DNA from: a virus
Direction: 5' to 3' (one strand)
DNA length: 56,750 nt
IMG/VR virus record: IMGVR_UViG_3300009100_000003
Location: 1-56,750 of that record
Position 1 is the stretch's first letter. Each line of letters starts with the position of its first letter. The notes below the pieces were generated by a model, which searched no databases, was not told the origin of the DNA, and saw only the letters and a program-made list of their open reading frames with translations. A program made the translations under genes and the position numbers. This document shows, one piece after another, positions 22,459 to 56,750 of the stretch.

Positions 22459-22649
22459 ACGAGTCGCGCGTCCCGCCGTTCACAGCGCCGGCGCCGCCAT
22501 GCTCGCGCTGCGGCGGGATCTACGAGCTCTCGGTTCGGCTGGCGGACGGGACCGTGCTCCGCGGTCACGTGCCGGGCGGGCCGACCTGCGTGCCGCGGGC
22601 GCCGGTGTGGGACAAGCGCGCTCGTCGAGCGATGCTGGCCGGCCGGTGA
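22455..22649 (+). CDS. Hypothetical small protein (64 aa)
   Basis: ATGA and GTGA overlaps. It contains CSRCGG...C. Confidence 0.5.
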   Translation: MNESRVPPFTAPAPPCSRCGGIYELSVRLADGTVLRGHVPGGPTCVPRAPVWDKRARRAMLAGR

Positions 22650-24184
22650 CGCCGGTCTATCGGGACGAGTTCCTCGAGGTCTACGGCGGCGACGCTCGGG
22701 CTGTCCTCGCCGAGCTCGCGCCCGACTCGATCGACTGCGTCGTGACGAGTCCGCCCTACTGGGGGCTCCGCGACTACGGGCTCCCGCCGGCGGCGTGGGG
22801 CGGCGATCCCGACCACGCCCACGCGTGGGGCCCGCGAGCGCATCGCGGCGGTCCGGCCGGCCGGCAGGGCGCGAGTGGAGATCGTGCGACACGCGGCAAC
22901 GTCGAGGAGCTCGCGATGCGCGGTGCCGATGCAGGCGCCTGGTGCGAGTGCGGCGCCTGGTGCGGGCAACTGGGACTCGAGCCTCACCCCGATCAATACG
23001 TCGCCCATCTCGTCGAGGTCCTGCGAGCCGTGCGCCGCGTGCTCCGTCCGATGGGTACGTTGTGGCTCAATCTCGGCGACTCGTACGCAACGGGGGCGGG
23101 CGCCGTCGGCGCCCGCCCGGGTGGAGGCGCGCAGGGCGATCGATGGGCCGGCACGCCGGAGCTCCGACACCGCGACGCGCGCCGACGAGACCACGGGCGC
23201 CCGGCGACGAACGGCCGCGGCGAGGGCCAGCCGACGCCGGCGGGGATCGGACCGATGACGCAACCGAATCGGATGCCGATCGCCGGACTCAAGCCGAAGG
23301 ACCTCGTCGGCGCTCCGTGGGCCGTGGCGTTCGCCGCCCGCGCGGACGGCTGGTATCTCCGGTCCGACATCGTTTGGGCGAAACCGAACCCGATGCCCGA
23401 GTCGGTCGGCGATCGCCCGACGCGCTCTCACGAGTACGTGTTCCTGCTCACGAAGTCACGGCGCTATTACTACGATGCCGAGGCGATCCGAGAGGCGCGT
23501 CCGGAGTCCGAGCTTGAGCGCCAAGCACGCGGCTACCGCAACATCGACTCGGTCAAGAACGATCCCGCGGCGCGTCCGCCGGGCTCGGCGCCGCACTCAG
23601 GGATCCATCGTGCGGTTCGTGGCGAACGCGCGGCGAAGGTTCCGCAAGGATGGGATGACCGTCCGGGATCTCATGGCACGATCCACCGCGAGGGCCGGGC
23701 GACGGAGACTCGCTACTCGGACGGGCAATGGCCGCGCGGGTGGGCGTCCGGAGCGGAGCGCGGACACGATCCGCAGGTCGGGCGCTATGCGCCGCCCGAC
23801 GGGGCCGGGGCCGAGATCGTCGCAGGGCGCAACCGTCGGAGCGTGTGGACCGTCGCGACCGAGCCGTATCCCGGGGCGCACTTCGCCACGTTCCCCCGGA
23901 AGCTGATCGAGCCAATGATCCTCGCCGGCGCCCCGAAGGGCGGCATCGTGCTCGATCCGTTCGCCGGATCCGGGACGGTCGGGCTCGTCGCTCAGTCGCT
24001 CGGTCGTCGGGCGATCCTCGTGGATCTCAACCCGAGCTATGTCCGGCAGGCCCTCCGCCGCGCCGCGCGCACCTTCGGAGTCGGAGGGCGGGATCTCGAG
24101 GCGCAGTCTGACGAGGCAGGCTGGCCGGCCGGTAGCCTGTGGCATCCGGACGGGGCTACCATCGCTGCGGAGGGTCCCGAGTGA
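22646..24184 (+). CDS. N4-cytosine / N6-adenine DNA methyltransferase (beta-class, PF01555-like) with long insertions
   Basis: Motif IV is VVTSPPYWG near the N-terminus. DIVWAKPNPMPES...RSHEYVFLLTKS is in the middle. Motif I is VLDPFAGSGTVG near the C-terminus. GTG 22646 overlaps the upstream stop. Confidence 0.85.
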   Translation: MTPVYRDEFLEVYGGDARAVLAELAPDSIDCVVTSPPYWGLRDYGLPPAAWGGDPDHAHAWGPRAHRGGPAGRQGASGDRATRGNVEELAMRGADAGAWCECGAWCGQLGLEPHPDQYVAHLVEVLRAVRRVLRPMGTLWLNLGDSYATGAGAVGARPGGGAQGDRWAGTPELRHRDARRRDHGRPATNGRGEGQPTPAGIGPMTQPNRMPIAGLKPKDLVGAPWAVAFAARADGWYLRSDIVWAKPNPMPESVGDRPTRSHEYVFLLTKSRRYYYDAEAIREARPESELERQARGYRNIDSVKNDPAARPPGSAPHSGIHRAVRGERAAKVPQGWDDRPGSHGTIHREGRATETRYSDGQWPRGWASGAERGHDPQVGRYAPPDGAGAEIVAGRNRRSVWTVATEPYPGAHFATFPRKLIEPMILAGAPKGGIVLDPFAGSGTVGLVAQSLGRRAILVDLNPSYVRQALRRAARTFGVGGRDLEAQSDEAGWPAGSLWHPDGATIAAEGPE

Positions 24185-25005: not shown

Positions 25006-25584
25006 GTGACTGACGAGGGTCAGGGCGAAGGTCGTCAGACGTGCGGCGCCCGGAAGCGCAACGGCACCGGGACCTGCGGACGACCTGCCGGATGGGGCAC
25101 CGATCACGTCGGCGTGGGCTCTTGCAAGTTGCACGGTGGCTCGACGCGGAACGGTCGGAAGCACGGCCGCTCGCTCGCTGCGGCGAAGGCCCTGACCACG
25201 CTCGCGATCCCGGTTGTGGGTGATCCGATCAAGGTCCTCGAGGCCGCGATCGAGAGCGCGTACGGGTTCCTGCTCGGAGCTCGGAGGCTGCTCGCGGACA
25301 CGCTCGACGAGGACCAGGCGGACGGGCTCCCGTTCACCGCGGAGGAGGCTGCCGAGCTCTACGGTCAGGCGATCGACCGCGCCGCCCGGACCGCGAAGTT
25401 CGGCGTGGATGCGAAGCTCGACGAGGCGCGCCTCACCATCGCTCGCGAGCTCGCGGAGCGGGTGATCATCGTCGTCCGCGTCGGGCTCGACGTGTTCGAG
25501 CGCACCGGCAACCGCGAGGAGGCTGAGCGTGCCATCGTGGCCGAGCTCCGCTCAGCTGCGCCGGTCGGCGACGGGCTGAACTGA
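25006..25584 (+). CDS. Putative terminase small subunit
   Basis: It lies just upstream of TerL. The N-terminal Cys/His knuckle is CGARKRNGTGTCGRPAGWGTDHVGVGSCKLHGG, followed by a helical domain. The call rests on position and architecture only. Confidence 0.5.
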   Translation: MTDEGQGEGRQTCGARKRNGTGTCGRPAGWGTDHVGVGSCKLHGGSTRNGRKHGRSLAAAKALTTLAIPVVGDPIKVLEAAIESAYGFLLGARRLLADTLDEDQADGLPFTAEEAAELYGQAIDRAARTAKFGVDAKLDEARLTIARELAERVIIVVRVGLDVFERTGNREEAERAIVAELRSAAPVGDGLN

Positions 25585-25622
25585 GCACCCTCGCAGAACG
25601 GCCGGTTGTCGGCCGGCTCGTC

Positions 25623-29015: not shown

Positions 29016-30587
29016 GTGGTCCGCACGGCCGCGCGCCGGCGTCCGCGGCCGGTCGCATACGCAGAGCCCGATCCCCTCTACGGACTCCTCGACGAGGACC
29101 TCGAGCTCCTCGACGCCGCGATCGAGGCCATCCTCAAGGCGCGCGCCCCGAAGCCTCCGGCCGGGACCGCAGAGCGATGGGAGCGCCCGATTCGCCGCGA
29201 GCTCCGCCGGCTCTCGGAGGACGTCGGCGACGCGATCGACGCGCTCGAAGTTCGGCGGTCGTGGTGGGTTCGCAAGGCCGACCCGTCGGACTTCTCGGTC
29301 AAGCCGGCAGTGTGGTCGCGATTCGAGCGCGAGCTCGGCGACGTGCTCGAGGAGATGTACGGCGCCGTCGGCGAGGCAGGATTCGCCGCGGTCGCGGGCG
29401 AACTGGGCATCGCTCTCGACTACGGCATCCGTCAGGAGATCGCCGACCCTGTCCTCGACGAGGTCGGCCGGCGGGTGACGATGATCTCCGACGCCTCGCG
29501 GAACGAGCTCGCGGATGCGGTCGGGACGGCGACGTCGCGCGGCTACTCGGTCGAGCAACTCGTCCGCGGCGTCGCCGGCGATGGGTTCTCGGGTCTCCGG
29601 CCGATGGTCGATCGCTGGCAGGCCATCGCCCCGGTCTCGACGTCGATCGATCGGGCGACGCTCATCGCCCGGACCGAGACCGCGAACGCGTACAACCTCG
29701 CGACGATGGACGCGTACCGGGCCTCGAACCTGGTCGCCGAGGTCAACGTGTTCGATGGCGGCAACTGCGGCTGGACGACGCACACCGATCCCGACCTCGC
29801 GAACGGATCCCGCCGGACACTCGACGAGGCACGGGCGCACCCGACAGCGCATCCCTCGTGCCAGAGGGCATTCGGGGCGATCGTTCGCGGGGCGCCGCCT
29901 CCGGGCTCGCCCTACGCGCAGCGAGTCACCCCGCCTCAGGTCGGGCCACGACCGACTGCGGATGCGCTCGAGCTCCGGGCGCGCGCGATCCAGGCGCGGG
30001 CGTTCTCATCGGCGGAGGCTGCCGAGAAGGCGGTCACGTCGACCCTGCGCGACCTCGAGACCCGGACCGGGGGAACCCTCGCGGGCCTGAACTTCCGGCT
30101 CAAGATCGACGGCGAGCGGACGGTCGAGAAGGTCCTCGGCGACGTCGCAGCTGGTGACCCGATCGAGCGCGCTAGGCAGGTCAAGGACGCGCTGCGGTAC
30201 ACGCTCATCTACCCGGAGGATCGGTTGTGGGCCGGCGCTCGCGCGGTCGAGGCGGAGCTCACCCGGCTCGGCTACTCGACGATCAAGTGGAAGCCGAACT
30301 GGACGAACCCGCTGTCGCGCGACCTCAACACCGCGTTCCGAGCTCCGAACGGGAGCCGGTTCGAACTGCAGTTCCACACCCCGACCTCGTTCGAGCGGAA
30401 GATGAACGGCGGGCCCGGCGGACAGCGCCCGTCGCACGAGATCTACACCGAGCTCCGGTCGCTGCCGCAGGATGCGGTGTCGGCTCGACGGTCACTCGAG
30501 GACGAGCTCCGAGCTCTGTGGGCCGACGTCCCGATCCCGGCCGGCGAACCGTACTTCGCCGAGATCGTCGAGGACCTACTGCCGTAG
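29016..30587 (+). CDS. MuF / SPP1 gp7-like head-morphogenesis protein with an extra ~190-aa C-terminal RelA/SpoT-like (toxSAS-like) domain
   Basis: MuF core: IARTETANAYNLATMDAY...VFDGGNCGW...HPSCQRAF. C-terminal domain from about nt 30000: RLKIDGERTVEKV, VKDALRYTLIYPED, SRFELQFHTPTSFERK and SHEIYTELR. Confidence 0.85.
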   Translation: MVRTAARRRPRPVAYAEPDPLYGLLDEDLELLDAAIEAILKARAPKPPAGTAERWERPIRRELRRLSEDVGDAIDALEVRRSWWVRKADPSDFSVKPAVWSRFERELGDVLEEMYGAVGEAGFAAVAGELGIALDYGIRQEIADPVLDEVGRRVTMISDASRNELADAVGTATSRGYSVEQLVRGVAGDGFSGLRPMVDRWQAIAPVSTSIDRATLIARTETANAYNLATMDAYRASNLVAEVNVFDGGNCGWTTHTDPDLANGSRRTLDEARAHPTAHPSCQRAFGAIVRGAPPPGSPYAQRVTPPQVGPRPTADALELRARAIQARAFSSAEAAEKAVTSTLRDLETRTGGTLAGLNFRLKIDGERTVEKVLGDVAAGDPIERARQVKDALRYTLIYPEDRLWAGARAVEAELTRLGYSTIKWKPNWTNPLSRDLNTAFRAPNGSRFELQFHTPTSFERKMNGGPGGQRPSHEIYTELRSLPQDAVSARRSLEDELRALWADVPIPAGEPYFAEIVEDLLP

Positions 30588-30824
30588 GGCGCGCTCGAGC
30601 TCCGCGGCCTGCTCGGGGGTGATCGGCGTCGCGTCGGTCACGCCGCCGGCGCCCGTGAAGTAGCCGGCACCTTCGGACGCGAAGATCCACTCGCCCGTGT
30701 CACGGTCGAGGACCTCGTAGCGCACACCTTCGGATCCGACGACTCGGCGGGCGAGGCCGTACACGAAGCCGCCGGACTCGAGCTCGGCATACCACGTGTC
30801 GGAGGGATTGATCCAGAGGGTCAT
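30576..30824 (-). CDS. Small protein (82 aa), convergent with the MuF gene and overlapping its 3' end by 12 nt. It is a candidate immunity or antitoxin protein.
   Basis: The product is MTLWINPSDTWYAELESGGFVYGLARRVVGSEGVRYEVLDRDTGEWIFASEGAGYFTGAGGVTDATPITPEQAAELERALRQ*. G+C at third codon positions is high. It is the last gene of the leftward operon. Confidence 0.65.
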   Translation of the reverse strand: MTLWINPSDTWYAELESGGFVYGLARRVVGSEGVRYEVLDRDTGEWIFASEGAGYFTGAGGVTDATPITPEQAAELERALRQ

Positions 30825-30826
30825 GA

Positions 30827-31642
30827 TCAGGACTCCTGCCCGGCTGGCGCCGCCGAGCGCGCGTGCAGGATCGACGCCAACCGGAGCCGATAGCGTACCC
30901 CGTCGATGCGACGCCACGCGTCCCGGTTCGCCAGCGGGACCAGCACGCACGGACTCATGAGATACCAGCGCGGCAGCGCGAGGAGGACGACGATCGGCAT
31001 CGTCCAGGGCCGTCCGGTCAGGGCGCCCCACGCGAGGAGCGGGACCGCGATCCCGAGCCGGAGCACGAGCCACGACGGGGTGACCGGATCGAAGTCATGC
31101 AGGAACGCCGGGTAGGCGAGCCACGCCTGCGGAGCGATCGCGAACGAGATCCCGACGATCGCTGCAGTGGCACCGAGCCCGATCGCGAGCTTGCGCCACT
31201 CGCCCCGGAACGCGTGCCACAGGATCCCGATCCCGACCGAGGACTTCGAGATGAACGCGAACGCCCACGTGCCGGGGTAGCGAATGCCGTACCAGGCGGC
31301 GGCAGTGAGCGCGATGTTCACGTTCCCTGCGTTGATATCCGAGGCGACCGGGCTGAGCACGAACACGAGCGGCAGGAGCGGCCCGACGAGCGCGTACAGG
31401 GCGACGAGCTCGACCGCTCGAACGATTGCGACGAACGCCTCGAACGGGAGCCCGAGGAGCGGGCTGATCAGCTGCGCGAACGCTGGCGTGTAGACGTACG
31501 CCGCGCTCGAGCGGATGACGTACGGGTCATCGGGCACGACCGTCCAGTAGGCGATCGCGTCGACCGGCGATCCGCCTCCGAGCCACACGAGCCATACGGT
31601 GACGGCGAACGCGATCGCGAACGCCCGCGCGGCTAGGGCCAT
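30827..31642 (-). CDS. Polytopic membrane protein (about 8 TM), possibly a GT-C-type (DUF2029/GT87-like) glycosyltransferase
   Basis: 271 aa from ATG 31642, with hydrophobic helices throughout. AAYVYTPAFAQLISPLLGLPFEAF resembles the Y.Y(P/T)P..A...P motif of DUF2029 enzymes. The function is tentative. Confidence 0.7.
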   Translation of the reverse strand: MALAARAFAIAFAVTVWLVWLGGGSPVDAIAYWTVVPDDPYVIRSSAAYVYTPAFAQLISPLLGLPFEAFVAIVRAVELVALYALVGPLLPLVFVLSPVASDINAGNVNIALTAAAWYGIRYPGTWAFAFISKSSVGIGILWHAFRGEWRKLAIGLGATAAIVGISFAIAPQAWLAYPAFLHDFDPVTPSWLVLRLGIAVPLLAWGALTGRPWTMPIVVLLALPRWYLMSPCVLVPLANRDAWRRIDGVRYRLRLASILHARSAAPAGQES

Positions 31643-31747
31643 CGGACGATCTCGGGGCGGAACCACCAGCGCCAGTGACCGTTACGGTGGACCTCGTGCG
31701 CCACGCGAGCGGTGCAGCGGCGACCGGCGAACCGATCGCCGCAGCGG

Positions 31748-31855
31748 CTAGCCACAGGGGCCTCCGTTGATCGTCGCCACGAGCAGCGCGGCGGCGAGCA
31801 GCACGGCCGCGAGCCCGATCGACCCGATCCACACGAGATCGACGAGGTCGCTCAT
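31748..31855 (-). CDS. Small single-pass membrane protein (35 aa)
   Basis: The product is MSDLVDLVWIGSIGLAAVLLAAALLVATINGGPCG*. ATGA overlap with the upstream gene. It is below the ORF-track cutoff. Confidence 0.4.
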   Translation of the reverse strand: MSDLVDLVWIGSIGLAAVLLAAALLVATINGGPCG

Positions 31856-32157
31856 TCGTCCCCTCCCTTCGCGGTGATCTGCTGGACGAGCGGGTTTGAG
31901 ACGCCGGCCGCAGTCGCGATCGTCCGGAGCGGGATGTCGAGTGCCCGGGCTGCGCGGATCGCGTAGTCGCGCTCGGCCCGTCGGGCGTCGAGGGCTGCCT
32001 TTGCAGCCGCATACGCCTCGCCTCGAACCTGGACCCGGCGAAGCGCCGTGTCCGTGTCGAGGGTGGGCGCGAGATGACTCGGGTCCTGTCCGAGTCCCTG
32101 AACCTTGCGGGCCATCTCGGCGGGCCAGCCGGTCCACGGGTCACGCGTCGTCGTCAT
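31852..32157 (-). CDS. Helix-turn-helix protein (101 aa)
   Basis: ATG 32157. The C-terminal ARALDIPLRTIATAAGVSNPLVQQI is HTH-like. Confidence 0.6.
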   Translation of the reverse strand: MTTTRDPWTGWPAEMARKVQGLGQDPSHLAPTLDTDTALRRVQVRGEAYAAAKAALDARRAERDYAIRAARALDIPLRTIATAAGVSNPLVQQITAKGGDE

Positions 32158-32435
32158 CGTCCGTACTCCTCGGTGAGGACGCCCGGGGGCTGCCCGAGCG
32201 TCGTGCGGTTGAGCGCGTAGGCGCCATCGGAGAGCCGGCGCGCGATGGGTGCGGGCCCGTACCCCCACGGGTCCCGGAAGTCGTCCGCGAGATGCTCGCC
32301 GCAGCGCGGCTCATCGGATGCGAGGTCGACCGCGATCGATGGCGAACCGCAGGTCTCGTGGTCGTACGAGTCGAACACCCGCCACGACCAGGTGTAGCGG
32401 CAGGCGCCGCCGGTGAGCTCCTCGAGGGGGATCAT
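32154..32435 (-). CDS. Hypothetical protein (93 aa)
   Basis: ATGA overlaps at both ends. The sequence begins MIPLEELTGGACRYTWSWRVFDSYDHETCG... Confidence 0.55.
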   Translation of the reverse strand: MIPLEELTGGACRYTWSWRVFDSYDHETCGSPSIAVDLASDEPRCGEHLADDFRDPWGYGPAPIARRLSDGAYALNRTTLGQPPGVLTEEYGR

Positions 32436-32707
32436 CGGTCGGCCTTGCCATCGGTCCCGACGAACCACGGGGTTTCGCGGTCGTCACTCTCGAAGTATTC
32501 GGGCGCGTCGGCCGTCCGCTCCCACAGGAACCCGTACCGGATCCCGCCCGTGTGCCAGCCGGTCGCGGGGTCGCGAGCCTCGTTGACCGCCCGCGTCGCC
32601 TCGTCGACGGACGGGAAGTACCCGAGCTCGCGCTCCCGATCGGCAGCCTCACCCTCGGAGTCGTGGTAGAGGACCGCCTCGTACACCGGGCGGTTGCGCC
32701 GCTTCAC
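32432..32707 (-). CDS. Hypothetical protein (91 aa)
   Basis: GTG 32707 overlaps the upstream stop (GTGA). The sequence begins VKRRNRPVYEAVLYHDSEGEAADRERELGYFPSVDEATRAV... Confidence 0.5.
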   Translation of the reverse strand: MKRRNRPVYEAVLYHDSEGEAADRERELGYFPSVDEATRAVNEARDPATGWHTGGIRYGFLWERTADAPEYFESDDRETPWFVGTDGKADR

Positions 32708-33015
32708 GGCGTCCACCGTGGGTAGAGGCAGAGCGCGTAGCCGGCCCACGGCTCGGCGTACACGCCAGCTGCGCGACCGACCGCGTCCGTGTTGATCGCG
32801 ACCGCCCAGTCGGAGAACATCGACGACTCGAGGAGGATCGTCGGTGTCGGGACGCCGGGCCACGTCCACGCCATGTTGAGCTCGGGCCCGTCGCCGTGGT
32901 AGGCGGCATCCGGTCCGGTCGGGACCTTCGCCCCGGTCCGATACACGCGCCGGATCTCGAGCGCGACTGCGGCGAGGGCCTTGTCGGCCTGGGCCTTTGT
33001 GACCTTCCGGGCCAT
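32704..33015 (-). CDS. Hypothetical protein (103 aa)
   Basis: ATG 33015 follows GGGAGGCAGCTGAG. The composition is protein-like. Confidence 0.6.
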   Translation of the reverse strand: MARKVTKAQADKALAAVALEIRRVYRTGAKVPTGPDAAYHGDGPELNMAWTWPGVPTPTILLESSMFSDWAVAINTDAVGRAAGVYAEPWAGYALCLYPRWTP

Positions 33016-33016
33016 C

Positions 33017-33631
33017 TCAGCTGCCTCCCTTCACGCCGTAGGGGAGATGGTCATTGACGAACACGTAGCTCGCGAGGAAGTGGACGAGCAGCGCCCGCGG
33101 ATGCGTCCGCGAGAAACTGAACGCCGGATCTGAGCCGCGCGACCCGAGCGTCCCGGACGAGTCGCCGAGGGTCGCCGTCCCGTCGGGGTTCAGCCACGAG
33201 GAGACCGAGTAGCCGAGGTCGATCATCCCGTCGAACCGGCGACCCGAGAAGCCCGCGAGGGCGTCCTTCACGTCGCGGCTCCGAGGAGCGCCGGCCTTGA
33301 GGACCGGAGCCCACCGACCGTCCCGGTGATCGACGTCCGCGTAGTTCGTGACGACAGGCCCGTAGGGCTTGTCATCGGAGTCGACCCGGGTCCAGGCGTT
33401 CGTGACCGTCCCGTCGTACCACACGTTGACCGACGCGCCGCCGGAGTACGAGTCCGACCGGACGTAGAACTTCGTGCCGGGGAACCGCGCTGCGAGGGTG
33501 GACCGGACGAGCGCGGCGGTGTCCGCCCATCCGACGTAATAGATCGGCGACCCGGCCCGATCACTCGGGGTCGAGGCCGCGACCTTCGCATAGACCGGAT
33601 GGTCTCGCGAAGGGGCCGAAGTGAGGGTCAT
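33017..33631 (-). CDS. LPD29-like protein, a type found on plasmids and ICEs (204 aa)
   Basis: LVRSTLAARFPGTKFYVRSDSYSGGASVNVWYDGTV resembles the hallmark '..FPg.KFsVrs..ysGG.Si.V.W.DGp' of large-polyvalent-protein-associated domain 29. It is the first gene behind the promoter at 33683-33710. Confidence 0.65.
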   Translation of the reverse strand: MTLTSAPSRDHPVYAKVAASTPSDRAGSPIYYVGWADTAALVRSTLAARFPGTKFYVRSDSYSGGASVNVWYDGTVTNAWTRVDSDDKPYGPVVTNYADVDHRDGRWAPVLKAGAPRSRDVKDALAGFSGRRFDGMIDLGYSVSSWLNPDGTATLGDSSGTLGSRGSDPAFSFSRTHPRALLVHFLASYVFVNDHLPYGVKGGS

Positions 33632-33637
33632 CCCTGA

Positions 33638-33652
33638 CCTCCGTACCTGCGG
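33638..33652 (-). promoter_or_regulatory. Leader motif CCGCAGGTACGGAGG (minus strand)
   Basis: 6 nt upstream of the start at 33631. Confidence 0.6.
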
Positions 33653-33682
33653 GGCCCGTCAGAGCGGCGGGCGCATCTAGAG

Positions 33683-33710
33683 TGTATAGCACCTTAGCAC
33701 CGGTCGTCAA
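33683..33710 (-). promoter_or_regulatory. Leftward promoter TTGACG-N16-TATACA with an extended -10 (TGC)
   Basis: The minus strand reads TTGACGACCGGTGCTAAGGTGCTATACA. It is near-identical to the elements at 34771-34798 and 37683-37710. Confidence 0.7.
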
Positions 33711-33724
33711 GTCGGCCGATGGTC

Positions 33725-34339
33725 CTACCGAGGGCAGACGAGGATCGAGGGAACGTGCTTGTGCGGCGTGTGATCGGCCGTCCGATGGTGGCACTTGTAG
33801 CAGACGTCCGGATCCCGGCGGCTCGCGTGAAACCAGGTGGCCGGCGGATGCTCGATGAGCTTGAGCCGGGCCTTGAGCCGGCCGATGTTGCCGCCGAGGT
33901 TCGAGAGTTCGTAGCCCGCGTGCGGGACCGCGATCGACCTCGCGTACGGGGTCAGTGCCGCGAGCTCGGCGCGGTGGGCCTTGCGGTAGGCGGCGTTCGC
34001 AGCTGCCATCGCGGCCCGCTTCGCCTCGAGCTCGGCGATCCGCTCCCGGAGCCGCTCGGCGGCGTCGGGATCGTCGGAGTAGATCGCCCGATCTGCGGCC
34101 GCTTCGATGCTCGCGGCTCGAGCCGCCATCGCGTCGGCCTTGTCCAGGCTGCGGAATGCCCGATCCTCGCGGGCGATCAGGCGGGCCCGCTCCGGGATAT
34201 GCCCGGGCTGCGTGTTGAACGCGTGGTCGTCGTGGTAGGGAGCGCCGAGCGCGAGGTCCGCATTCGCGCGGGCCACTCGCCGGCCGGCCCAGTCCCGGAG
34301 CCGTTCGGCTCGGGCAAGGCGCCGTTCGCGGTAGGTCAT
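33725..34339 (-). CDS. DUF3560-like protein (204 aa)
   Basis: The true start is MTYRERRLARAERLRDWAGRRVA... at 34339. Helical repeats are followed by a Cys/His C-terminus (CYKCHHRTADH). This N-terminal signature is typical of DUF3560 proteins of plasmids and actinophages. Confidence 0.65.
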   Translation of the reverse strand: MTYRERRLARAERLRDWAGRRVARANADLALGAPYHDDHAFNTQPGHIPERARLIAREDRAFRSLDKADAMAARAASIEAAADRAIYSDDPDAAERLRERIAELEAKRAAMAAANAAYRKAHRAELAALTPYARSIAVPHAGYELSNLGGNIGRLKARLKLIEHPPATWFHASRRDPDVCYKCHHRTADHTPHKHVPSILVCPR

Positions 34340-34728
34340 GCCGTGCCTCCTGTACCTGCGGTGAGCAGAGCGGGGACCGCGCTGCCGGGGCCGAGAGCGG
34401 CGGGTCGGACGTAGAACGTGACGCCCACGTCCACGCCGCAGAAGTAGGAATGGACGGCGAGGATCGTCCCCGCCGGGACGTCGACCGGGTCGGCCGCGCC
34501 GCGCGCCCAGGGGGACGGCACGACGAGCTTGCCGATGCGGCCGTTCGCGACGTCGACGAGGACGACATCGTCCTTCGTCCCGCCCGACCACGAGAGGTCG
34601 AGATGGAGAGGACGATCGCCCCACGCGACCGCGGAGAGCTTGCGCCCTCGGTAGTCCGGGAAGGTCGCGGCGAGGAGCCGCTTCACTCCGGGGTCCGAGC
34701 GGCGGAGCGGGCGAGAGAGAGGGGACAT
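34336..34728 (-). CDS. Hypothetical protein (130 aa)
   Basis: ATG 34728 lies 4 nt after the leader motif. ATGA overlap with the DUF3560-like gene. Confidence 0.6.
   Translation of the reverse strand: MSPLSRPLRRSDPGVKRLLAATFPDYRGRKLSAVAWGDRPLHLDLSWSGGTKDDVVLVDVANGRIGKLVVPSPWARGAADPVDVPAGTILAVHSYFCGVDVGVTFYVRPAALGPGSAVPALLTAGTGGTA
34346..34361 (-). promoter_or_regulatory. Leader motif CCGCAGGTACAGGAGG (minus strand), inside the upstream gene's 3' end
   Basis: 6 nt upstream of the start at 34339. Confidence 0.55.
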
Positions 34729-34732
34729 GGCG

Positions 34733-34748
34733 CCTCCGTTACCTGCGG
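34733..34748 (-). promoter_or_regulatory. Leader motif CCGCAGGTAACGGAGG (minus strand)
   Basis: 4 nt upstream of the start at 34728. Confidence 0.6.
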
Positions 34749-34770
34749 AGCCCGTGTCGGGCAACTAGAG

Positions 34771-34798
34771 TGTATAGCAGCTTAGCGGCCGACGTCAA
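34771..34798 (-). promoter_or_regulatory. Leftward promoter TTGACG-N16-TATACA with an extended -10
   Basis: The minus strand reads TTGACGTCGGCCGCTAAGCTGCTATACA. The transcript then forms the hairpin GCCCGacaCGGGC before the leader motif. Confidence 0.7.
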
Positions 34799-35266
34799 GC
34801 ACGAAGATCGCGCGACCAGCGGATCCGAGGCTCGTCGGGGAGGGCGCGATCGCCCCACAGGTTCGCGTCGTACCGAGGTCGGCCGGCGCTCGCCCACGAC
34901 GCGCGCGCCTGGAGGCGCTCCTCGAGGACGAACCCGGCGGCGCGGAGCGAGGCGCCTGACTCCGAGGCGAGGGTGTACGTGATCGCTCTCCGGTAGCCGA
35001 GCGCGGCGGCTGCCCGACAGATCGCCCCGTACAGGCGCGAGCTCGCGTTGCGCTGCTCGAGCGTGCAGACGCGGGTGATCTCGATCGTCGAGCGATCCGC
35101 AGCGAGGACGCGCGAGCCTGGTCGGCCGGCGACCGCGAACACCGACGAGCTCGCCGTCGAGTTCGAGCCCGACGCCGAATCGCCAGCCGCGTGGCGGGAG
35201 GTTGTGGCGATGGTGGGCCGCGACGAAAGCGCGGGCCTCGGCGAGGTCGATCGCGCGGAGGTTCAT
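34795..35266 (-). CDS. GNAT-like (XF1762-type) protein, split between two frames at about 35140-35146. The length of 472 nt is not a multiple of 3.
   Basis: Frame A gives MNLRAIDLAEARAFVAAHHRHNLPPRGWRFGVGLELDGELVG. Frame B gives VFAVAGRPGSRVLAADRSTIEITRVCTLEQRNASSRLYGAICRAAAALGYRRAITYTLASESGASLRAAGF... Joined, they read as one domain. Confidence 0.6.
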
Positions 35267-36589
35267 TCGTCCTCGACCGTCTCGAGGAGATCCAGCGCCC
35301 GGAGCCCGACGACGTAGGCAACCTTCGGCACGACCGCGTTGCCCAACTGCTGCAGGCGATGTTTCCGTCGGGTGACGCCCTTCGCGAGCCGGGGCACGCG
35401 AGGCGACGGATCGGGCGGCCACGGCTCGCCCTCGAGCCACTCCGGCGCGGCGACCTCGAGATCAGTCCAGCCGATCGGGAAGCCCATAAGCCACTCCACC
35501 CAATCGGGGCTCAGCGGGCCGGTCGCGTGCTCCGCCTCCTGAACGGTCGCGTCGAGGTAATGCTTGTCCACCCGGTACTCGTGGGACTTCGATCCGAGCG
35601 GGCCTGTCCCCTTCCACTCGGACGCTCGAGGGGTCGGCCAGATCGACGGCGGCGTCGCCAGCGCGGGCTGCGAGACCGCCTCCTCCGGGAACCGCTGCTC
35701 GACGACTGTCCGGAGGTTCTTGCCGTGCCGGACACGCGCGAGCTCGGGCCCCGCATCGCCGTCCCCGGCGCGAGGGGTCGGGTACGTCTGCGCCGCCCGG
35801 CCGAGCGGGCTCGAGTGACCGTCCGGTCCGGTGCCGTGCGGTGTCGGCCAGTTGCCGTACCGCGACTCGTTCACCTTCGCCTGCAGCCCGTCGGGCCGAC
35901 CGTGCGACGAGCGCGCCCCGCCATCGCCATCCGTGACGAGCGGTGTCGGCCACGTCCCCTTGCGGGCCATCGTCTCGAGGCTCGGCCGCTTCCGGCTCCG
36001 CGTGTTCGACCCGGTGCCGTTGCCCGACGAGCCGTAGGCAGCTGCGCTCGGCGTCGGGAAGGGCGCCCGATGGATCGGGTCAGGATCCTCCGGCTCGACG
36101 TCGCCGAACCCCGAGGACGAAGATCCGGTTGCGTAGGTGCGGAGCACCGACGTCGAGCGCGGCGAGTCGATCCCGTTCCGCGTCGTACCCGAGGGCGACC
36201 AGGTCCCCGAGAACGTCTCCGAGCCCGTATCGAAGAAGCCCCGGGACATTTTCCACGAGCACGAGTCGGGGTCGTAATGCAGCGATGACGTCTGCGAACG
36301 CCGGCCAGAGCCACCGCGGGTCCGCCTGGGCAAGTTGGCGTCCGGCGACGCTGACGGGCTGGCAGGGGAACCCGCCGGCAATGAGGTCGACCCGTTCGAG
36401 CTCGGCGAGGGGGAGGGTCCGGACGTCGCCGTAGCGGGTGACGTCGGGCCATCGATGCTCGAGGACCCGGACCGCTTCGGGGTCGTACTCGACCTGCCAG
36501 CGAGGCTGCCAGCCGGCGCGTTCGAGTCCGAGATCGATGCCGCCGATCCCGGCGAATAGCGAACCGTACGTCGGTGCGTCATCGCGCAT
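35263..36589 (-). CDS. dcm: C5-cytosine DNA methyltransferase, split between two frames at a C4/G4 run (36109-36112). The length of 1327 nt is not a multiple of 3.
   Basis: The N-terminal frame has motif I LFAGIGG, motif IV GGFPCQPVS, and also VLVENV and HLRNRIFVLG. The C-terminal frame has a repeated WPTP target-recognition region and motif X QLGNAVVP. ATGA overlap with the GNAT-like gene. Confidence 0.8.
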
Positions 36590-36812
36590 GGCCGGAGCCG
36601 AGCGCGCGCGGCGTGACGTCCTTCGCGTTCGGCGGTGCCACGAGGTAGTCCTCGAGGGCGCCGCCCGCACCGAGGTAGCCCGGCCATCGCGGGTCGCTCG
36701 GGTCCGGGATGGGCAGTTCGCACTTGCAGTCGGGGTCGCCACAGAAGCCCGTCCAGGGCCCGTCGCCTGTCTGATGGCCGTCGACCGGATGTCCGCACGT
36801 GCAACGGTTCAT
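36579..36812 (-). CDS. Cys-rich small protein (77 aa)
   Basis: ATG 36812 follows GAGAGGAGCGAGCTC. The sequence begins MNRCTCGHPVDGH...FCGDPDCKC. Confidence 0.55.
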   Translation of the reverse strand: MNRCTCGHPVDGHQTGDGPWTGFCGDPDCKCELPIPDPSDPRWPGYLGAGGALEDYLVAPPNAKDVTPRALGSGHAR

Positions 36813-36922
36813 GAGCTCGCTCCTCTCAGTAGCCGACGAATGTACGCGTCGGCGATCGCGCGGCAGAGCCGACAGCGGGTGACGGCGCCGCCCCCGTGGG
36901 CGGGGAGATCATGACGAGTCAT
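36809..36922 (-). CDS. Very small ORF (37 aa) linked by ATGA overlaps at both ends
   Basis: The product is MTRHDLPAHGGGAVTRCRLCRAIADAYIRRLLRGASS*. Only the coupling geometry supports it. Confidence 0.3.
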   Translation of the reverse strand: MTRHDLPAHGGGAVTRCRLCRAIADAYIRRLLRGASS

Positions 36923-37134
36923 GCCGCCACCGACCATCCGGCCGGAGCGGGCCCGTCCGGATCCGTCCGGCGAAGTTTCGCGAGAGCGGCGGGATCAGTG
37001 ATCGGCCGCAGGTCCCGAGGCCGGGACTTCCGGCCAGCGAGCGCCCGGTCGATCGCGTTGAGGTCAGAGCGCCGCAGCGGCGGCCGCGCGGGGCCGAGCT
37101 TGAGCGCGTGAGTCCGGATGATGATCAGGCCCAT
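36919..37134 (-). CDS. Hypothetical basic protein (71 aa)
   Basis: ATG 37134 lies 5 nt after GGAGG. G+C at third codon positions is high. Confidence 0.45.
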   Translation of the reverse strand: MGLIIIRTHALKLGPARPPLRRSDLNAIDRALAGRKSRPRDLRPITDPAALAKLRRTDPDGPAPAGWSVAA

Positions 37135-37370
37135 GTCAGCCTCCGTGGTGAGTGGTAGATCGCGAGCGCGGCGCTCGCGGCGGCGTCGGTCGAGTACCGG
37201 CCGACGAGGATGAAGTCGTCGCAGTCCGGAGCGCGGGCGACCGCGACGTAGTCCGCGCCATCGATGACGGTCATGCTGACCGCCGCTCGATCACCGGCGA
37301 GGAACCCGCGAACGCGGTCCGCGAGATCCGCCGGGAGGGGCGGAAGATCGGGAGCCGGGAGAGGGGCCAT
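37125..37370 (-). CDS. Hypothetical protein (81 aa)
   Basis: ATG 37370 lies 4 nt after GGAGGCGCT. Coding-looking sequence starts at MAPLPAPDLPP... Confidence 0.5.
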   Translation of the reverse strand: MAPLPAPDLPPLPADLADRVRGFLAGDRAAVSMTVIDGADYVAVARAPDCDDFILVGRYSTDAAASAALAIYHSPRRLTWA

Positions 37371-37381
37371 AGCGCCTCCGT

Positions 37382-37621
37382 TCAGTGATCGTGGCCGGGC
37401 AGCGCGCACCGCGGGCCCGGAACGAAGTCAGGGATGCCGGCGAGGACCGGCGAGTGGCGACCGCCACCGAGCCAACCGTCGGCGTGGTAGAGCCACCCGT
37501 GATCGTGAGTCGCAGCGCCGCCGTGGGGCGGCCAGCCGGTCCGCACGACGGGCACGCCGCACGCGTCACACGGCCCGAGGACCGGAACGCCTCGAGCGGC
37601 GAGTCGGTCGAGAAGCGTCAT
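37382..37621 (-). CDS. Cys/His-rich small protein (79 aa), first gene of the leftward block
   Basis: ATG 37621 lies 5 nt after the leader motif. The sequence contains CDACG...H.H...H...C..PGHDH. Confidence 0.6.
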   Translation of the reverse strand: MTLLDRLAARGVPVLGPCDACGVPVVRTGWPPHGGAATHDHGWLYHADGWLGGGRHSPVLAGIPDFVPGPRCALPGHDH

Positions 37622-37626
37622 TGGGA

Positions 37627-37642
37627 CCTCCGTTACCTGCGG
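37627..37642 (-). promoter_or_regulatory. Leader motif CCGCAGGTAACGGAGG (minus strand)
   Basis: 5 nt upstream of the start at 37621. Confidence 0.6.
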
Positions 37643-37682
37643 AAGGGGCGGAGCCGAGGAGCGGGACCGCCTCCGTGGTAAG

Positions 37683-37710
37683 TGTATAGCACCTTAGCGC
37701 CGAGTGTCAA
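37683..37710 (-). promoter_or_regulatory. Leftward promoter TTGACA-N16-TATACA with an extended -10
   Basis: The minus strand reads TTGACACTCGGCGCTAAGGTGCTATACA. This is the best consensus match of the family. Confidence 0.7.
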
Positions 37711-37777
37711 GGTGCTCTGCAGCGATTCGAGGTAGTACCATCGCCGACGCCAGCGTGACGTTCGAGGAGTCGCCGAG

Positions 37778-39298
37778 ATGACGGTCGCGGTACAGGAGCC
37801 CGAGGCGGGCCTCGTCCGGCGGATCTTCCGCCAGGTCGTCCGCTCTCTCGTCGCGAAGCAGCGCAATGACACCGGCGTCATGGTCGCCCTGTTCCTGCCG
37901 CCCGACGTCGCGGCCGAGCTCGCGGTCCCCGGCGGCGAGCCGGCGAACGTCTTGCACTTGACGCTCCGCATCTTCGCCGACGATGCCGCGCAGGTCCCGA
38001 TCGAGAAGCTCGACAAGTGGGCCGCAGAGATCGAGCAGGTCGCGAAGCGGACGCCGGTCCTGTCGGGTCGGATCTCCGGAGTCGGGCGGTTCAACGGCGA
38101 CCAGGCTGGCGGCGAGGACGTCGTGTACGCGACGATCGACCTGCCCGGACTCGAGCAGCTGCGCGATCAGGTGCGATGGTGCGGCGACTACCGCGAGCTC
38201 GGGGAGTCCGACGAGCCGGAGCACGGGTTCAGCCCGCACGTCACGCTCGCGTACGGCAACGATGTCGAGCTCCCCGAAGTCCCGACCGTCCCGGTTCGGA
38301 TCGATCGCCTGAGCCTCGCGATCGGGAACGAGCGACGCGACTACATGTTCGCCGGCGCCGCGACTGCGCCGGTCGCGGTCACGCAGCACAAGGCCCAGTG
38401 GTCCGCGGCGTTCATCAACGATCTCCCCGACTCCTCGTTCCTCTACATCGAAGCCGGCGGCGAGAAGGACGGCGACGGGCGGACGACGCCGCGATCGCTG
38501 CGCCACTTCCCGGTCAAGGGCCCCGATGGCGCGGTCGACCTGCCGCACGTCCGGAACGCCCTCGCGCGGATCCCGCAGTCGAAACTGCCGGCCGACGTCC
38601 AGGCAGCTGCCGAGCGCAAGGCCCGCGCGATGCTCGAGGCCGCGACCGAGAAGGCATCGGTCGAGCGGTCCGAGGCGGTCGTCGCCACGCTCGGCGAGCT
38701 CGGGTGGGAGGGCAAGGTCGAGGTCGAGCCGGTCGGCGTGTCGGAGGACGGCTCCGCGTTGATCTGGAAGGCCGACCGCGAGGAGGGTCCGGGGCTCATC
38801 CTCGTCGATGACGGGGCCTCGATCCTCGAGCTCTCCGCGTGGGTCGAGCGCGCCTCGGTCCCTGCCCTCGAGCCGGTCGAGCAGTTCGCGGTGATCAAGT
38901 CCGAGGGTGACCTCCGCTACACCCTCGGCGTCGCGTATCCGGCCCGGCGGACGACGAAGGCGACCGACTCGAAGGACGTCGACGCGCACAAGGACTACAT
39001 GACGCCCGAGGAGCTCGAGAAGGCAGCGTGGGCGTACCTCCGCGACCGGACGACCGTCCGCGCCTCCGGAGGCTCGACCGGTGTCGGGACGATGCACGAG
39101 GACGGGACCGACGGCGCCGGCGACGTCGTCGAGTCGTATATCTACCGCGGCCCGACGTGGAAGGTCGCCGACCAGGTCGTCGAGGCCGGCGATTGGCTCC
39201 TCGGCGTCGTGTGGGACGAGCCGACGTGGGCGCGCATCCAGTCAGGCGACCTGACCGGATATTCGATGCAGGGCTACGCGGCACGCGAGCCCGGGTAA
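37778..39298 (+). CDS. Fusion protein with an N-terminal 2H phosphoesterase (LigT-like), a middle conserved phage domain and a C-terminal XkdF-like putative prohead protease domain
   Basis: Two HxTx motifs: HLTL (37955-37966) and HVTL (38237-38248), 94 residues apart and preceded by VMVALFLPP. The middle part is WSAAFINDLPDSSFLYIE...RHFPV...LPHVRNALARI. The C-terminus, YTLGVAYPA...EELEKAAWAYL...MHEDG...VVESYIY...W..GVVWDE..W..I..G.LTGYSMQG, is XkdF/S78_2-like. Confidence 0.8.
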   Translation: MTVAVQEPEAGLVRRIFRQVVRSLVAKQRNDTGVMVALFLPPDVAAELAVPGGEPANVLHLTLRIFADDAAQVPIEKLDKWAAEIEQVAKRTPVLSGRISGVGRFNGDQAGGEDVVYATIDLPGLEQLRDQVRWCGDYRELGESDEPEHGFSPHVTLAYGNDVELPEVPTVPVRIDRLSLAIGNERRDYMFAGAATAPVAVTQHKAQWSAAFINDLPDSSFLYIEAGGEKDGDGRTTPRSLRHFPVKGPDGAVDLPHVRNALARIPQSKLPADVQAAAERKARAMLEAATEKASVERSEAVVATLGELGWEGKVEVEPVGVSEDGSALIWKADREEGPGLILVDDGASILELSAWVERASVPALEPVEQFAVIKSEGDLRYTLGVAYPARRTTKATDSKDVDAHKDYMTPEELEKAAWAYLRDRTTVRASGGSTGVGTMHEDGTDGAGDVVESYIYRGPTWKVADQVVEAGDWLLGVVWDEPTWARIQSGDLTGYSMQGYAAREPG

Positions 39299-45216: not shown

Positions 45217-45471
45217 GTGGGTATCGCAGTTCAGCCCTACCAGGCGTGGTACTTCGGCGCGGCCGTTCATAACGACGAGGTCGAGCTCGCGATGCGCGCC
45301 GCGACCGCCAATGATCGGCTCACGACACCGCGCCTCGTCGAGCAGGTCCAAGTCGTCGGGCTCGAGACCGAGAACGAAACGGACTTCGTGTGGGTCATCC
45401 GCGAATGGCCGTCAGGCCGCGCCGAGCGGATCGAGTCGTGGCTCGTTCGAAAGATGCCAACCGAGCCGTGA
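45217..45471 (+). CDS. Hypothetical protein (84 aa)
   Basis: GTG 45217 lies 6 nt after GAGGAGGATCG. The track start at 45154 lacks an RBS. Confidence 0.5.
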   Translation: MGIAVQPYQAWYFGAAVHNDEVELAMRAATANDRLTTPRLVEQVQVVGLETENETDFVWVIREWPSGRAERIESWLVRKMPTEP

Positions 45472-46262
45472 CGGTCACCGTCGCAATGCCGTGGCGCGGT
45501 GCGCCCGAGCTCCTGCCGCGAGCCGTTCACTCGGTGCTCGCGCAGACGGTCAAGGATCTCCGGCTCGTCGTGGTCGCAGACGGGGAGCGCATCGGTGCGC
45601 GACTGTTTCACTCGCTCACCGACGGCGGCTCGTGGGGCCCGGATGAGCGGCTCGTGCTCTACCGGATCGAGACGAGCCACGGTCCGTACTTCGCCCAGGA
45701 GGTCGTCCTCGAGGCGACGAGCTCGGAGTGGTACGCCGTCGTCGGCGCGGATGACTGGGTCGATCCTGACCATCTCGAGCGCCTGATCGCGGTCGCCGAC
45801 CCGACGGGCGCCGCAGTCCCGGGGGCGGTGTGGTGGCACGAGGACGAGATGCCGGATCCGCGATATCCATTCGTCCACGTCGGGCGCTACGAGGTCGGCG
45901 TGTATCGCCCTGAGCGGCTGCGCGCGATCGGGGGGTTCAACGTCGCCGAACGGATCGGCCAGGACTCGCTGACCCTCAAGCTCCTCGACCTCACCGGAGG
46001 TATGGCGGTCGTCGACTGGGCGACCTATCACCGCACCCGCCGGCCGGACTCGCTCACGACCTCGCCCGAGACCGGATTCCGCACACGCACAAGGAACGAG
46101 ATGCGCCGGCGCAACCGCGGCGTGTACGCCAAGGCGCAGCGGCTCGCTGCCGGTCGAGGGTTCCCGCTCAAGCTCGCACGGTGGCGCCGCTCACAGATGC
46201 CAAAGGCCCTCCGCGAGGAGGCGGCGATGCACGCGGACACGCTCCGAAAGATCATCGGATGA
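45468..46262 (+). CDS. Family-2-like (GT-A fold) glycosyltransferase
   Basis: VTVAMPWRGAPELLPRAVHSVLAQTVKDLRLVVVADG is the typical GT2 N-terminus. The DxD-like motif is VVGADDW. GTGA overlap upstream. Confidence 0.75.
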   Translation: MTVTVAMPWRGAPELLPRAVHSVLAQTVKDLRLVVVADGERIGARLFHSLTDGGSWGPDERLVLYRIETSHGPYFAQEVVLEATSSEWYAVVGADDWVDPDHLERLIAVADPTGAAVPGAVWWHEDEMPDPRYPFVHVGRYEVGVYRPERLRAIGGFNVAERIGQDSLTLKLLDLTGGMAVVDWATYHRTRRPDSLTTSPETGFRTRTRNEMRRRNRGVYAKAQRLAAGRGFPLKLARWRRSQMPKALREEAAMHADTLRKIIG

Positions 46263-47310: not shown

Positions 47311-47323
47311 GGAGGATCGTTCC

Positions 47324-56678: not shown

Positions 56679-56750
56679 CCCGTGGCGGTGTCGATCGTCT
56701 ACCAAGAGAACCTCTCGGGCAGCGTCGGCAATCTGACGTGGGGCACTCCG
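56628..56750. repeat. Terminal direct repeat, right copy, identical to 1-123
   Basis: Same 123-nt string as the window start. The unique genome length is therefore 56,627 bp. Confidence 0.95.
56682..56750 (+). CDS. 5' end of the tail-fibre gene as seen across the circular junction. It duplicates 55-123.
   Basis: GTG 56682 lies 4 nt after the Dit stop and encodes MAVSIVYQENLSGSVGNLTWG... Confidence 0.5.
   Translation, partial: MAVSIVYQENLSGSVGNLTWGTP

Follow-up and report, generated by a model that had tools for sequence, protein, structure and literature searches.

A leftward gene block with its own predicted promoters inside a phage head operon, probably an accessory and counter-defence island

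The head-gene operon in IMG/VR virus record IMGVR_UViG_3300009100_000003 (positions 1 to 56,750; this whole 56,750-nt stretch is referred to below as the window) raises the question of why a series of rightward genes should be interrupted by 7 kb of genes on the opposite strand. The interruption starts at the MuF-like head morphogenesis gene (29016-30587, plus strand), which forms the left boundary of the leftward block and is convergent with its last gene, and extends to the protease/scaffold gene (37778-39298, plus strand), which forms the right boundary and is divergent from its first gene. Based on the gene calls, promoter predictions, and comparisons with relatives presented below, the block is probably a lineage-conserved accessory and counter-defence island in the head operon, transcribed from host-type promoters and most likely early in lytic infection.

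Since the raw list of open reading frames (ORFs) is uninformative at 70% GC, genes were called using a frame plot of GC content at third codon positions (GC3) and a codon-usage log-odds caller trained on long plus-strand genes. According to the caller, the window contains 79 genes, and every minus-strand gene lies within 30576-37621. The GC3 frame plot concurs, which upholds the description of a minus-strand block between MuF and the protease/scaffold gene with all other structural genes on the plus strand. Curation of the block by hand, from start codons and Shine-Dalgarno (SD) sites, yields 18 genes in three units (7 in A, 2 in B, and 9 in C), or 20 ORF pieces if broken frames are counted apart; the earlier count of 19 minus-strand ORFs is thus about right, while the source's own caller gave 16. 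Overlaps of 4 nt (ATGA or GTGA) are real, but they are observed at 8 of 15 within-unit junctions, i.e., at about half of them rather than at most, as had been stated. The last gene, C9 (30576-30824, minus strand), overlaps the MuF stop by 12 nt and corresponds to the small ORF previously noticed as convergent with MuF.

To place the block among related genomes, MuF homologs were taken from the protein collection and IMG/VR, and their contigs were compared. A single-protein MuF scan of IMG/VR gave no matches, whereas a scan with a MuF alignment worked. In six of six metagenomic relatives having MuF identity of 51-62% (designated L006, L007, L127, L128, L129, and L228), leftward genes converge on the MuF 3' end and overlap it by 4-35 nt. 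In the three relatives that reach the protease, the blocks contain 14 genes (4.9 kb), 10 genes (3.4 kb), and 17 genes (7.8 kb). As for L008, whose MuF is 43% identical, the small genes after MuF lie on the plus strand behind the same promoter, and the first of them has a homolog in the leading gene of the L007 block; the cassette thus exists in both orientations. In two relatives at 30% identity, the leftward genes number only two and have a promoter of their own. Finally, in L229-L235 (38-47% identity over the MuF N-domain) a short MuF is followed directly by plus-strand head genes, with no block. Because MuF directly precedes the head genes in these genomes, the block is an insertion relative to the basal head-gene order, and an old one that serves as a hallmark of the lineage. 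The earlier suggestion of an insertion into the head module therefore holds, but the insertion is not recent: it is conserved across the lineage and has a core.

Regarding that core, each of the seven leftward blocks has C9 close to its MuF end, and in five of them (the window, L006, L007, L127, and L129) C9 is immediately preceded upstream by a helix-turn-helix (HTH) gene of the type of gene C5 in the window. In L228 (IMGVR_UViG_3300036851_000288) a LuxR/GerE-type HTH gene (2203-2448, minus strand) replaces the C5-type HTH beside the C9 homolog; this regulator swap, a single case, coincides with a changed promoter palindrome. DUF3560 and LPD29 are each found in three blocks, and L228 also has the GT87-like gene (40% identity). 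Among the compared blocks, only that of the window contains the methyltransferase and the Mom-like gene. The core is thus formed by the HTH protein and the 82-aa acidic C9, often together with DUF3560 and LPD29, with the remaining cargo being variable.

A constant MuF-proximal end could also be expected of an essential early takeover or regulatory module, in which, for example, the HTH protein and C9 would act as an early-to-late switch, or convergent transcription would restrain MuF, portal, and terminase. The retention of HTH and C9 at this end in all close relatives agrees with such a role, as do the MuF overlap, which is kept in all six relatives and leaves no room for a terminator, and the lack of any predicted intrinsic terminator in the block. 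It seems rather unlikely, however, given that L229-L235 have the same head-gene order and entirely lack the block, that the L008 block is oriented as MuF and has no convergence, and that the non-core gene content is highly variable (10 to 18 genes).

The promoters were considered next to the gene order. P1 (37681-37710, minus strand) is predicted as TTGACA-N18-TACACT with the conserved core GCTAAGGTGCTATACACT, and homologous promoters are found in L006, L007, and L228; the leader of unit A follows (37622-37680, minus strand), with a GC-rich hairpin and then CCGCAGGTAACGGAGG-N6-ATG. P2 (34769-34798, minus strand) and P3 (33681-33710, minus strand) both have TTGACG-N18-TACACT, followed by a hairpin and the leader CCGCAGGTAACGGAGG at 34733-34748 in the case of P2, and by the leader CCGCAGGTACGGAGG in the case of P3. 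Thus, each predicted promoter leads through a GC-rich hairpin to CCGCAGGTA(A)CGGAGG located 5-7 nt before ATG. Together, P1-P3 fill the only two internal intergenic gaps of the block and the divergent gap beside the protease gene. The pattern TGTATA-N15-18-YGTCAA has 3 matches in the window and 0 in 100 shuffles, which bears out the three near-identical promoter repeats reported in the preliminary description. A sigma-70 consensus scan of the whole genome returns 4 sites only, namely P1-P3 and 9839-9867 (plus strand), and the predicted promoters match the consensus at 9-10 of 12 positions. As for the proposed division into three units, there are no predicted terminators between them, and the transcripts may be nested instead of forming three separate operons.

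The same combination is found in the relatives, where it consists of TTGACr, 6-7 nt, GT(A/G)TAG-N3-CTATAC-NNT, a hairpin, CCGCAGG...GGAG, and a start codon. Of this module, L006 has two copies, L007 three, L228 two of a variant form, and L008 a single one on the plus strand. The -35 element, the palindrome with the -10 element, the hairpin, and the CCGCAGG-SD part are kept among relatives while the flanks diverge; for the hairpins, the position is conserved and the sequences are unrelated. Moreover, a promoter is followed immediately by LPD29 in the window, L007, and L228, and by DUF3560 in first or second place in the window, L006, and L007. Because both the module and these promoter-gene pairings are conserved, the repeats appear to be functional transcription signals, with good comparative support for what are predicted promoters; the pairings also show that the repeats are ancestral rather than recent duplications. 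The claim that the block has its own promoters is further strengthened by the presence of the same promoter-plus-leader module at the head of the blocks in L006, L007, and L228, as well as of the inverted block in L008.

The spacer between -35 and -10 is conserved beyond what contact with RNA polymerase needs, and in relatives it contains the palindrome GTAT-N7-ATAC. Palindromes overlapping the -10 element are GTATAG-N3-CTATAC in L006 and GTATC-N5-GATAC in L228, and L007 and L008 match at 5 of 6 positions. Such excess conservation would also suit protein-binding or recombination sites that are not promoters at all, the block being transcribed in some other way, and Microbacterium phages of clusters EC and EI have repeated intergenic motifs of 18-30 bp with a CTATA core 21-30 bp 5' of start codons. 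This explanation is nevertheless extremely improbable: across the five genomes, nearly all copies have a canonical TTGAC -35 box 18 nt from TANNNT, the sites point without exception toward the genes that follow them, even in the inverted L008, and one site can be both promoter and operator.

Two further sites with the leader of the block, at 8732-8817 and 9839-9910, are located on the plus strand and are absent from the preliminary description. A partial copy of the promoter core, GCTAAGGGGCTATACA, with a hairpin and the identical leader (8714-8823) precedes gene 8824, and a different sigma-70-like promoter, TGGACG-N17-TATATT, with the identical leader CCGCAGGTAACGGAGG (9839-9917) precedes gene 9918. 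These two genes open a long rightward operon that contains recombination genes. The leader motif itself is found at 8802-8817 and 9895-9910 (plus strand), with weaker copies at 12654 and 13718 (plus strand) and 34346 (minus strand). On both strands it directly precedes the start codons of certain genes, YqaJ and RecT among them, and as CCGCAGG-GGAG it is present in relatives also; in its placement it appears to behave like a start-associated sequence (SAS).

In the divergent gap, a conserved 10-mer, GTAGTACCAT, containing the -10-like hexamer TACCAT, is located at 37732-37741 (plus strand), 36 nt 5' of the protease start. It occurs once each in the window, L006 (13073-13082), and L007 (13932-13941), 28-36 nt 5' of the protease gene, and L228 has the near-palindromic variant ATGGTACGAT in its place. 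We regard GTAGTACCAT as a candidate rightward promoter or regulatory site that would restart the head operon.

A degenerate form of the promoter pattern gives mostly single chance matches across IMG/VR. Mycobacterium phage Wachhund (NC_051717) has a site resembling the block promoters, TTGACAGACAGTGTGTAGCGGCTATACAGT, at approximately 25466-25614; other cluster F phages have it as well, in the divergent gap that separates a leftward HTH gene (gp25) from the small genes preceding the lysis cassette. The matches in Wachhund and its relatives were dropped as support, as the resemblance is partly forced by the search pattern.

What the block encodes can be described unit by unit, all genes being on the minus strand. 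Unit A (34795-37621) contains A1 (37621-37382; 79 aa, Cys/His), A2 (37370-37125), A3 (37134-36919; basic), A4 (36922-36809; 37 aa), A5 (36812-36579; Cys-rich), a C5 DNA methyltransferase gene (36589-35263), and an XF1762/Mom-like GNAT gene (35266-34795). Unit B (33725-34728) consists of B1 (34728-34336; 130 aa) and B2 (34339-33725; DUF3560 with a C-terminal Cys/His cluster, homologs in L006 and L007). Unit C (30576-33631) starts with C1 (33631-33017; LPD29), followed by C2 (33015-32704; phrog_19324), C3 (32716-32432), C4 (32435-32154; small, Cys/His), the HTH gene C5 (32157-31852; C-terminal HTH, phrog_686, E-value 1e-4), C6 (31855-31748; 35 aa, transmembrane), C7 (31755-31633; small, Cys/His), the GT87-like membrane protein gene C8 (31642-30827), and C9 (30824-30576; 82 aa, acidic, present in every leftward-block relative).

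According to profile matches, B2 belongs to DUF3560 (PF12083; 34.9 bits with a cut-off of 27.2, E-value 2e-8, profile positions 3-122 of 124) and C1 to LPD29 (PF18847; 37.2 bits with a gathering score of 27, E-value 5e-9), PF18847 being found in all 7 homologs. The match of C8 to GT87 (PF09594) is marginal, with 26.7 bits and a cut-off of 25; the protein has 6 hydrophobic segments and 271 aa, and GT87 members are typically longer. These matches uphold the content listed in the preliminary description (a C5 methyltransferase, DUF3560, LPD29, an HTH protein, a polytopic membrane protein, and Cys/His proteins), and its GNAT-like protein proves to belong to the XF1762/Mom family (NF045478, E-value 6e-49 after frame repair). 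Structural comparisons provide less: for the AlphaFold model of C1 (predicted local distance difference test score, pLDDT, of 81) BFVD contains only other LPD proteins as matches and PDB none, and the model of C9 (pLDDT 75) has no fold match in PDB. PDB sequence searches with the HTH protein, C9, B2, and C1 returned no matches, and a word-index homolog search with C9 found one relative only. No gene of the block matches an Acr-like or other named anti-defence family in Pfam, PHROGs, NCBIfam, or PADLOC, the latter reporting generic methyltransferase matches only. The kinship of DUF3560 and LPD29 with leading regions of plasmids and integrative and conjugative elements is supported by the literature at the level of families; direct similarity searches of B2 against plasmid and phage collections, however, gave no match, including tblastn against plasmids.

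The same two families suggest yet another explanation, by which the cargo would be made late, packaged in the capsid, and injected as effectors of the polyvalent-protein type (LPD29, DUF3560), with the leftward promoters being late or constitutive. The definition of LPD29 comes from polyvalent proteins of phages and conjugative elements, and solo LPDs often adjoin phage structural genes (PMC5512222). The block also lies inside the head module beside MuF, and the adjoining protease carries a 2H phosphoesterase, a kind of domain fused to MuF or portal in such systems. On the other hand, the predicted promoters are of the host SigA type and the leader is common to the operon that starts recombination and replication genes; the opposite strand and separate promoters oppose co-expression with head genes; and an HTH protein, DNA-modification enzymes, and a polytopic membrane protein make unlikely capsid cargo. 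Taken together, packaged effectors are an unlikely account of the block.

The two DNA-modification genes of unit A need separate consideration, as do the assemblies from which they are known. The ends of the window (1-123 and 56628-56750) are identical over 123 nt, and the same genome is present as contigs of 54.9-56.8 kb in ENA ERZ27257649, Logan SRR5585388, and SRR5582436, with 100% identity over the region of interest. As its ends are identical and the same sequence was assembled independently, the window represents a complete phage genome, assembled as a circle, of 56,627 bp with about 70% GC. In the methyltransferase gene, motifs I-VIII are in frame 1 (36589-36080; PF00145, E-value 6e-37), and the target-recognition region with WPTP repeats and motifs IX-X (LMGFP / GNAVVP) are in frame 2, up to 35263. 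At the junction there is one extra nucleotide (+1) at CTCGGGG|TTCGGC, near 36105, and the required C5 motifs (FxGxG, PCQ, ENV, RxR, IX-X; TIGR00675) are not in a single frame. By homology the family is clear, but the gene is not intact. The Mom-like gene is split as well: its residues 2-43 are read in one frame and the remaining ones in a different frame, with a +1 shift near GGTG|TTCGCG. Neither split is mentioned in the preliminary description. Removing one nucleotide near 35140 produces a single match to NF045478 with 165.5 bits (cut-off 50) and E-value 6e-49, covering positions 3-135 of 143. The family identifiers are NF045478, PF25680, and phrog_1384, and the match to Pfam Mom is weak (18.7 bits against 27.1).

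Other long genes look intact, and the only two frameshifts belong to these adjacent DNA-modification genes of the block. Because the sequence is identical in independent assemblies, the frameshifts are real features of the phage population, and both may be read as recent inactivating mutations. Programmed +1 frameshifting was rejected: GTTCG is all that the two sites have in common, slippery runs are absent, and no stop interrupts the zero frame of the Mom-like gene for another 130 codons. Phase variation at the methyltransferase site was also rejected, the run of four G being too short, and a supposed third frameshift in the Asn-synthase region was discarded, as the ORF at 48147-49244 looks like a separate gene. 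The anti-restriction role suggested earlier therefore stands in part: the cargo is of the counter-defence and host-interaction kind, but its two chief DNA-modification genes are broken here. The paired frameshifts might speculatively reflect recent selection against self-modification, e.g., by methyl-dependent restriction in the host. Apart from the block, the phage keeps one DNA methyltransferase while the C5 enzyme is broken: an intact 512-aa N6/N4 enzyme is encoded in the rightward operon at 22646-24184 (plus strand), and L006 has one also.

Based on these observations, the island would most likely work as follows. Host RNA polymerase with the primary (SigA-type) sigma factor would read leftward from P1, P2, and P3, and because no terminators are predicted the transcripts would nest, so that the LPD29-to-C9 end at MuF would receive most transcription. 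The transcripts would begin with a 5' hairpin and the conserved CCGCAGG-SD leader. Early expression in lytic infection, alongside genes 8824 and 9918, appears probable because the leader is shared with these two genes and the genome lacks lysogeny genes; LPD domains have also been proposed to act early in invasion (PMC5512222). The cargo would act against host barriers through DNA modification (here broken), LPD29, DUF3560, and small zinc-type or metal-binding proteins, with the GT87-like protein resembling an envelope glycosyltransferase. The HTH protein may feed back on the promoters via the palindromic spacer in the manner of Aca regulators, which is consistent with L228, where both the regulator and the palindrome differ. 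The head operon would probably restart at the -10-like GTAGTACCAT in the divergent gap. Given the conservation of the convergent overlapping ends at MuF, transcription of the block would have to collide there with late rightward transcription and, speculatively, this could help to switch the block off late; the inverted arrangement of L008 indicates that convergence at MuF is not obligatory.

A more ambitious version of this scheme is possible, though doubtful: a self-regulated counter-defence island with multiple promoters, in which the resident HTH protein (LuxR-type in one relative, where the operator is changed) would control at least three operons via the promoter palindrome and possibly a CCGCAGG leader RNA, while an obligatory MuF overlap would couple shut-off to late onset. 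If true, no Aca-like regulon would have been described before it in phages of actinobacteria, and it would provide about a dozen candidate anti-defence proteins, including C9 and an LPD29 fold without a solved relative.

Several points weigh against an early counter-defence island. The genes with the clearest anti-restriction role are both frameshifted, and most proteins of the block remain without an assigned function after PADLOC, PDB, and fold searches. LPD29 and DUF3560 belong to families that are often delivered with the virion, which would fit late expression. Compared with shuffled GC-rich sequence, the leader hairpins show no significant gain in stability (z from -1.3 to +1.5), and the left half-site of the palindrome is degenerate in the window (GCTAAG compared with GTATAG, 3 of 6 positions), so that the operator idea is weakest here. 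In addition, the promoters are predictions from sequence, the timing, the counter-defence function, and the HTH feedback are steps that we infer, and the host is presumed to belong to Actinomycetota from the GC content of about 70%, the promoter type, and distant matches. What the data show directly is the strand layout, the conservation of promoters and leader, the division into core and variable genes, and the family assignments.

Expression from a prophage has to be weighed against the early lytic reading as well. In that case the block would be a moron or immunity cassette expressed in lysogeny, constitutive and providing superinfection exclusion by GT87-like envelope modification and an HTH repressor. 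Host-type promoters could indeed fire from a prophage, an HTH protein is present, and the GT87-like gene is the one that recurs in L228; C8 presumably resembles receptor-modifying genes of the seroconversion type. However, the precomputed Pfam annotation of the whole genome contains no integrase, recombinase, or ParAB partition families. The MuF-alignment scan of the genome collection found neither prophage copies of the lineage nor a host, only distant matches to the C-terminal MuF domain; these are mostly in Actinomycetota chromosomes, in gene neighbourhoods unlike head operons (loci L131-L179). The layout, moreover, matches that of lytic, circularly permuted Microbacterium-type phages (PMC7302621). 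A lysogeny cassette is therefore very unlikely, and of the options offered earlier, constitutive expression, here from a prophage, and superinfection exclusion are less likely than early lytic expression, with no integrase or repressor found.

The phage belongs to a lineage that appears to have no cultured member or close cultured relative. Megablast of the block against GenBank phages gave no match, tblastn against the same set reached only 25-31% identity for MuF and portal, and tblastn of B2 and C1 against phages gave only distant matches (25-31% identity) or none. Within the MuF-like protein, the C-terminal residues (about 190, from about 320 to 510) match widely at 28-37% identity, and the N-terminal residues (about 315) are lineage-specific. 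Rfam and tRNA scans of the whole window gave no matches.

The remaining layout, taken from the precomputed Pfam annotation and additional profile scans, is entirely rightward. The left part carries YqaJ/RecT, RNase T, a DUF87 ATPase, and the intact N6/N4 methyltransferase; terminase, portal, and MuF precede the block; and the 2H-phosphoesterase/S78 protease gene, the capsid gene, a glycosylation cassette, the tape measure, and a 1,878-aa tail protein follow it. In the protease/scaffold gene, an N-terminal 2H phosphoesterase (2',5' RNA ligase-like, PF13563) is fused to S78, as it is in L007; for 2H domains in fusions with MuF or portal, a role as injected effectors that degrade signalling nucleotides has been proposed. 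A 699-aa protein encoded 3' of the capsid gene (42626-44725, plus strand) has approximately 17 tandem repeats of 69-72 nt (23-24 aa) of the type LLDPxSAIYAPTV. Further on in the structural region are a GT2 glycosyltransferase gene (45468-46262), an Asn-synthase-like gene (47324-48157), and a 365-aa ORF (48147-49244, plus strand) overlooked by the source's gene caller; these three (45468-49244) may form the virion-glycosylation cassette. Finally, 790 nt without a called gene (15069-15855, plus strand) contain a long open frame with moderate GC3 and a CxxC...C motif, and probably represent an uncalled gene.

As for the practical value of the locus, counter-defence genes are poorly catalogued for phages of high-GC Gram-positive bacteria. 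The succession of MuF, a leftward block with a TTGAC...CTATAC promoter and CCGCAGG leader, and protease can be used as a landmark that marks a variable accessory-gene hotspot. C9, the HTH protein, DUF3560, and LPD29 are candidate proteins against restriction or other defences, and the conserved promoter/leader module is a candidate early-expression signal.

Among known systems, the closest parallel in position is the anti-CRISPR (acr) locus of Mu-like Pseudomonas phages, which lies between the Mu G homolog and protease/scaffold (PMC3993853). Similar to the acr-aca loci of the JBD30/D3112 group, where aca stands for anti-CRISPR-associated, the block occupies the equivalent position after the F/G morphogenesis genes and before protease/scaffold, has its own promoter, carries small cargo genes that vary among related phages, and has an HTH gene toward its 3' end (here C5, next to C9). 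It differs in being opposite in strand to the head genes and in its size, with 7 kb, about 18 genes, and three promoters in contrast to one short operon. In addition, the phage probably infects an actinobacterium, none of the genes in the block matches a known Acr, and restriction-modification and envelope functions, not CRISPR, are what the cargo suggests. Stanley and colleagues reportedly found in 2019 that the acr promoter is active early and repressed by Aca1. Aca regulators often control several neighbouring anti-defence operons via repeated motifs in promoters or 5' untranslated regions, and Mom and LPD29 genes occur in Aca-controlled operons (bioRxiv 10.64898/2026.07.27.740549). The HTH protein of the block is likened to Aca by position and predicted domain; by analogy, the block may work like an acr-aca locus, and it is not filed as a member.

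Phages Goodman and Johann (Microbacterium, cluster EJ) show the same order of portal, a MuF-like fusion, leftward genes, and plus-strand scaffold and capsid genes. In Goodman, the leftward genes converge on the MuF 3' end with a 4-nt overlap, and a TTGACA box is located 5' of the first of them; it is likewise a lytic, high-GC phage. In contrast to about 18 genes here, its group consists of four (1.2 kb), with no detectable sequence similarity and without the repeated promoter/leader module. The group was noted and not interpreted in the corresponding paper (PMC7302621).

Regarding the repeats, the motifs of Microbacterium clusters EC, EI, and EF and the SAS of Cluster K mycobacteriophages are also short and conserved, number 5-12 per genome, and lie in small intergenic gaps at a fixed distance 5' of start codons, with a CTATA-type core; in cluster EC one copy precedes a gene inserted between MuF and protease. 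Unlike these actinobacteriophage motifs, the repeats described here contain a clear -35/-10 pair and are tied to a strand-switched block. The CCGCAGG-GGAGG leader presumably differs from the published SAS consensus. The cargo, in turn, resembles leading-region and polyvalent counter-defence genes in its LPD29 and DUF3560 members, for which methyltransferase and Mom-type genes are typical companions, and DUF3560 is found on about 1000 plasmids. Here, however, these are solo small proteins rather than domains of giant polyvalent proteins, in a setting without single-stranded-DNA promoters or conjugation genes.

Both halves of the observation, leftward genes at MuF and repeated motifs, therefore have published precedents that were left uninterpreted. 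With similar islands known from the equivalent place in Mu-like phages, and a smaller counterpart in Goodman, the block is not a new kind of system or principle; it is a large, well-delimited island, probably of accessory and counter-defence genes, with its own predicted promoters inside a head operon.

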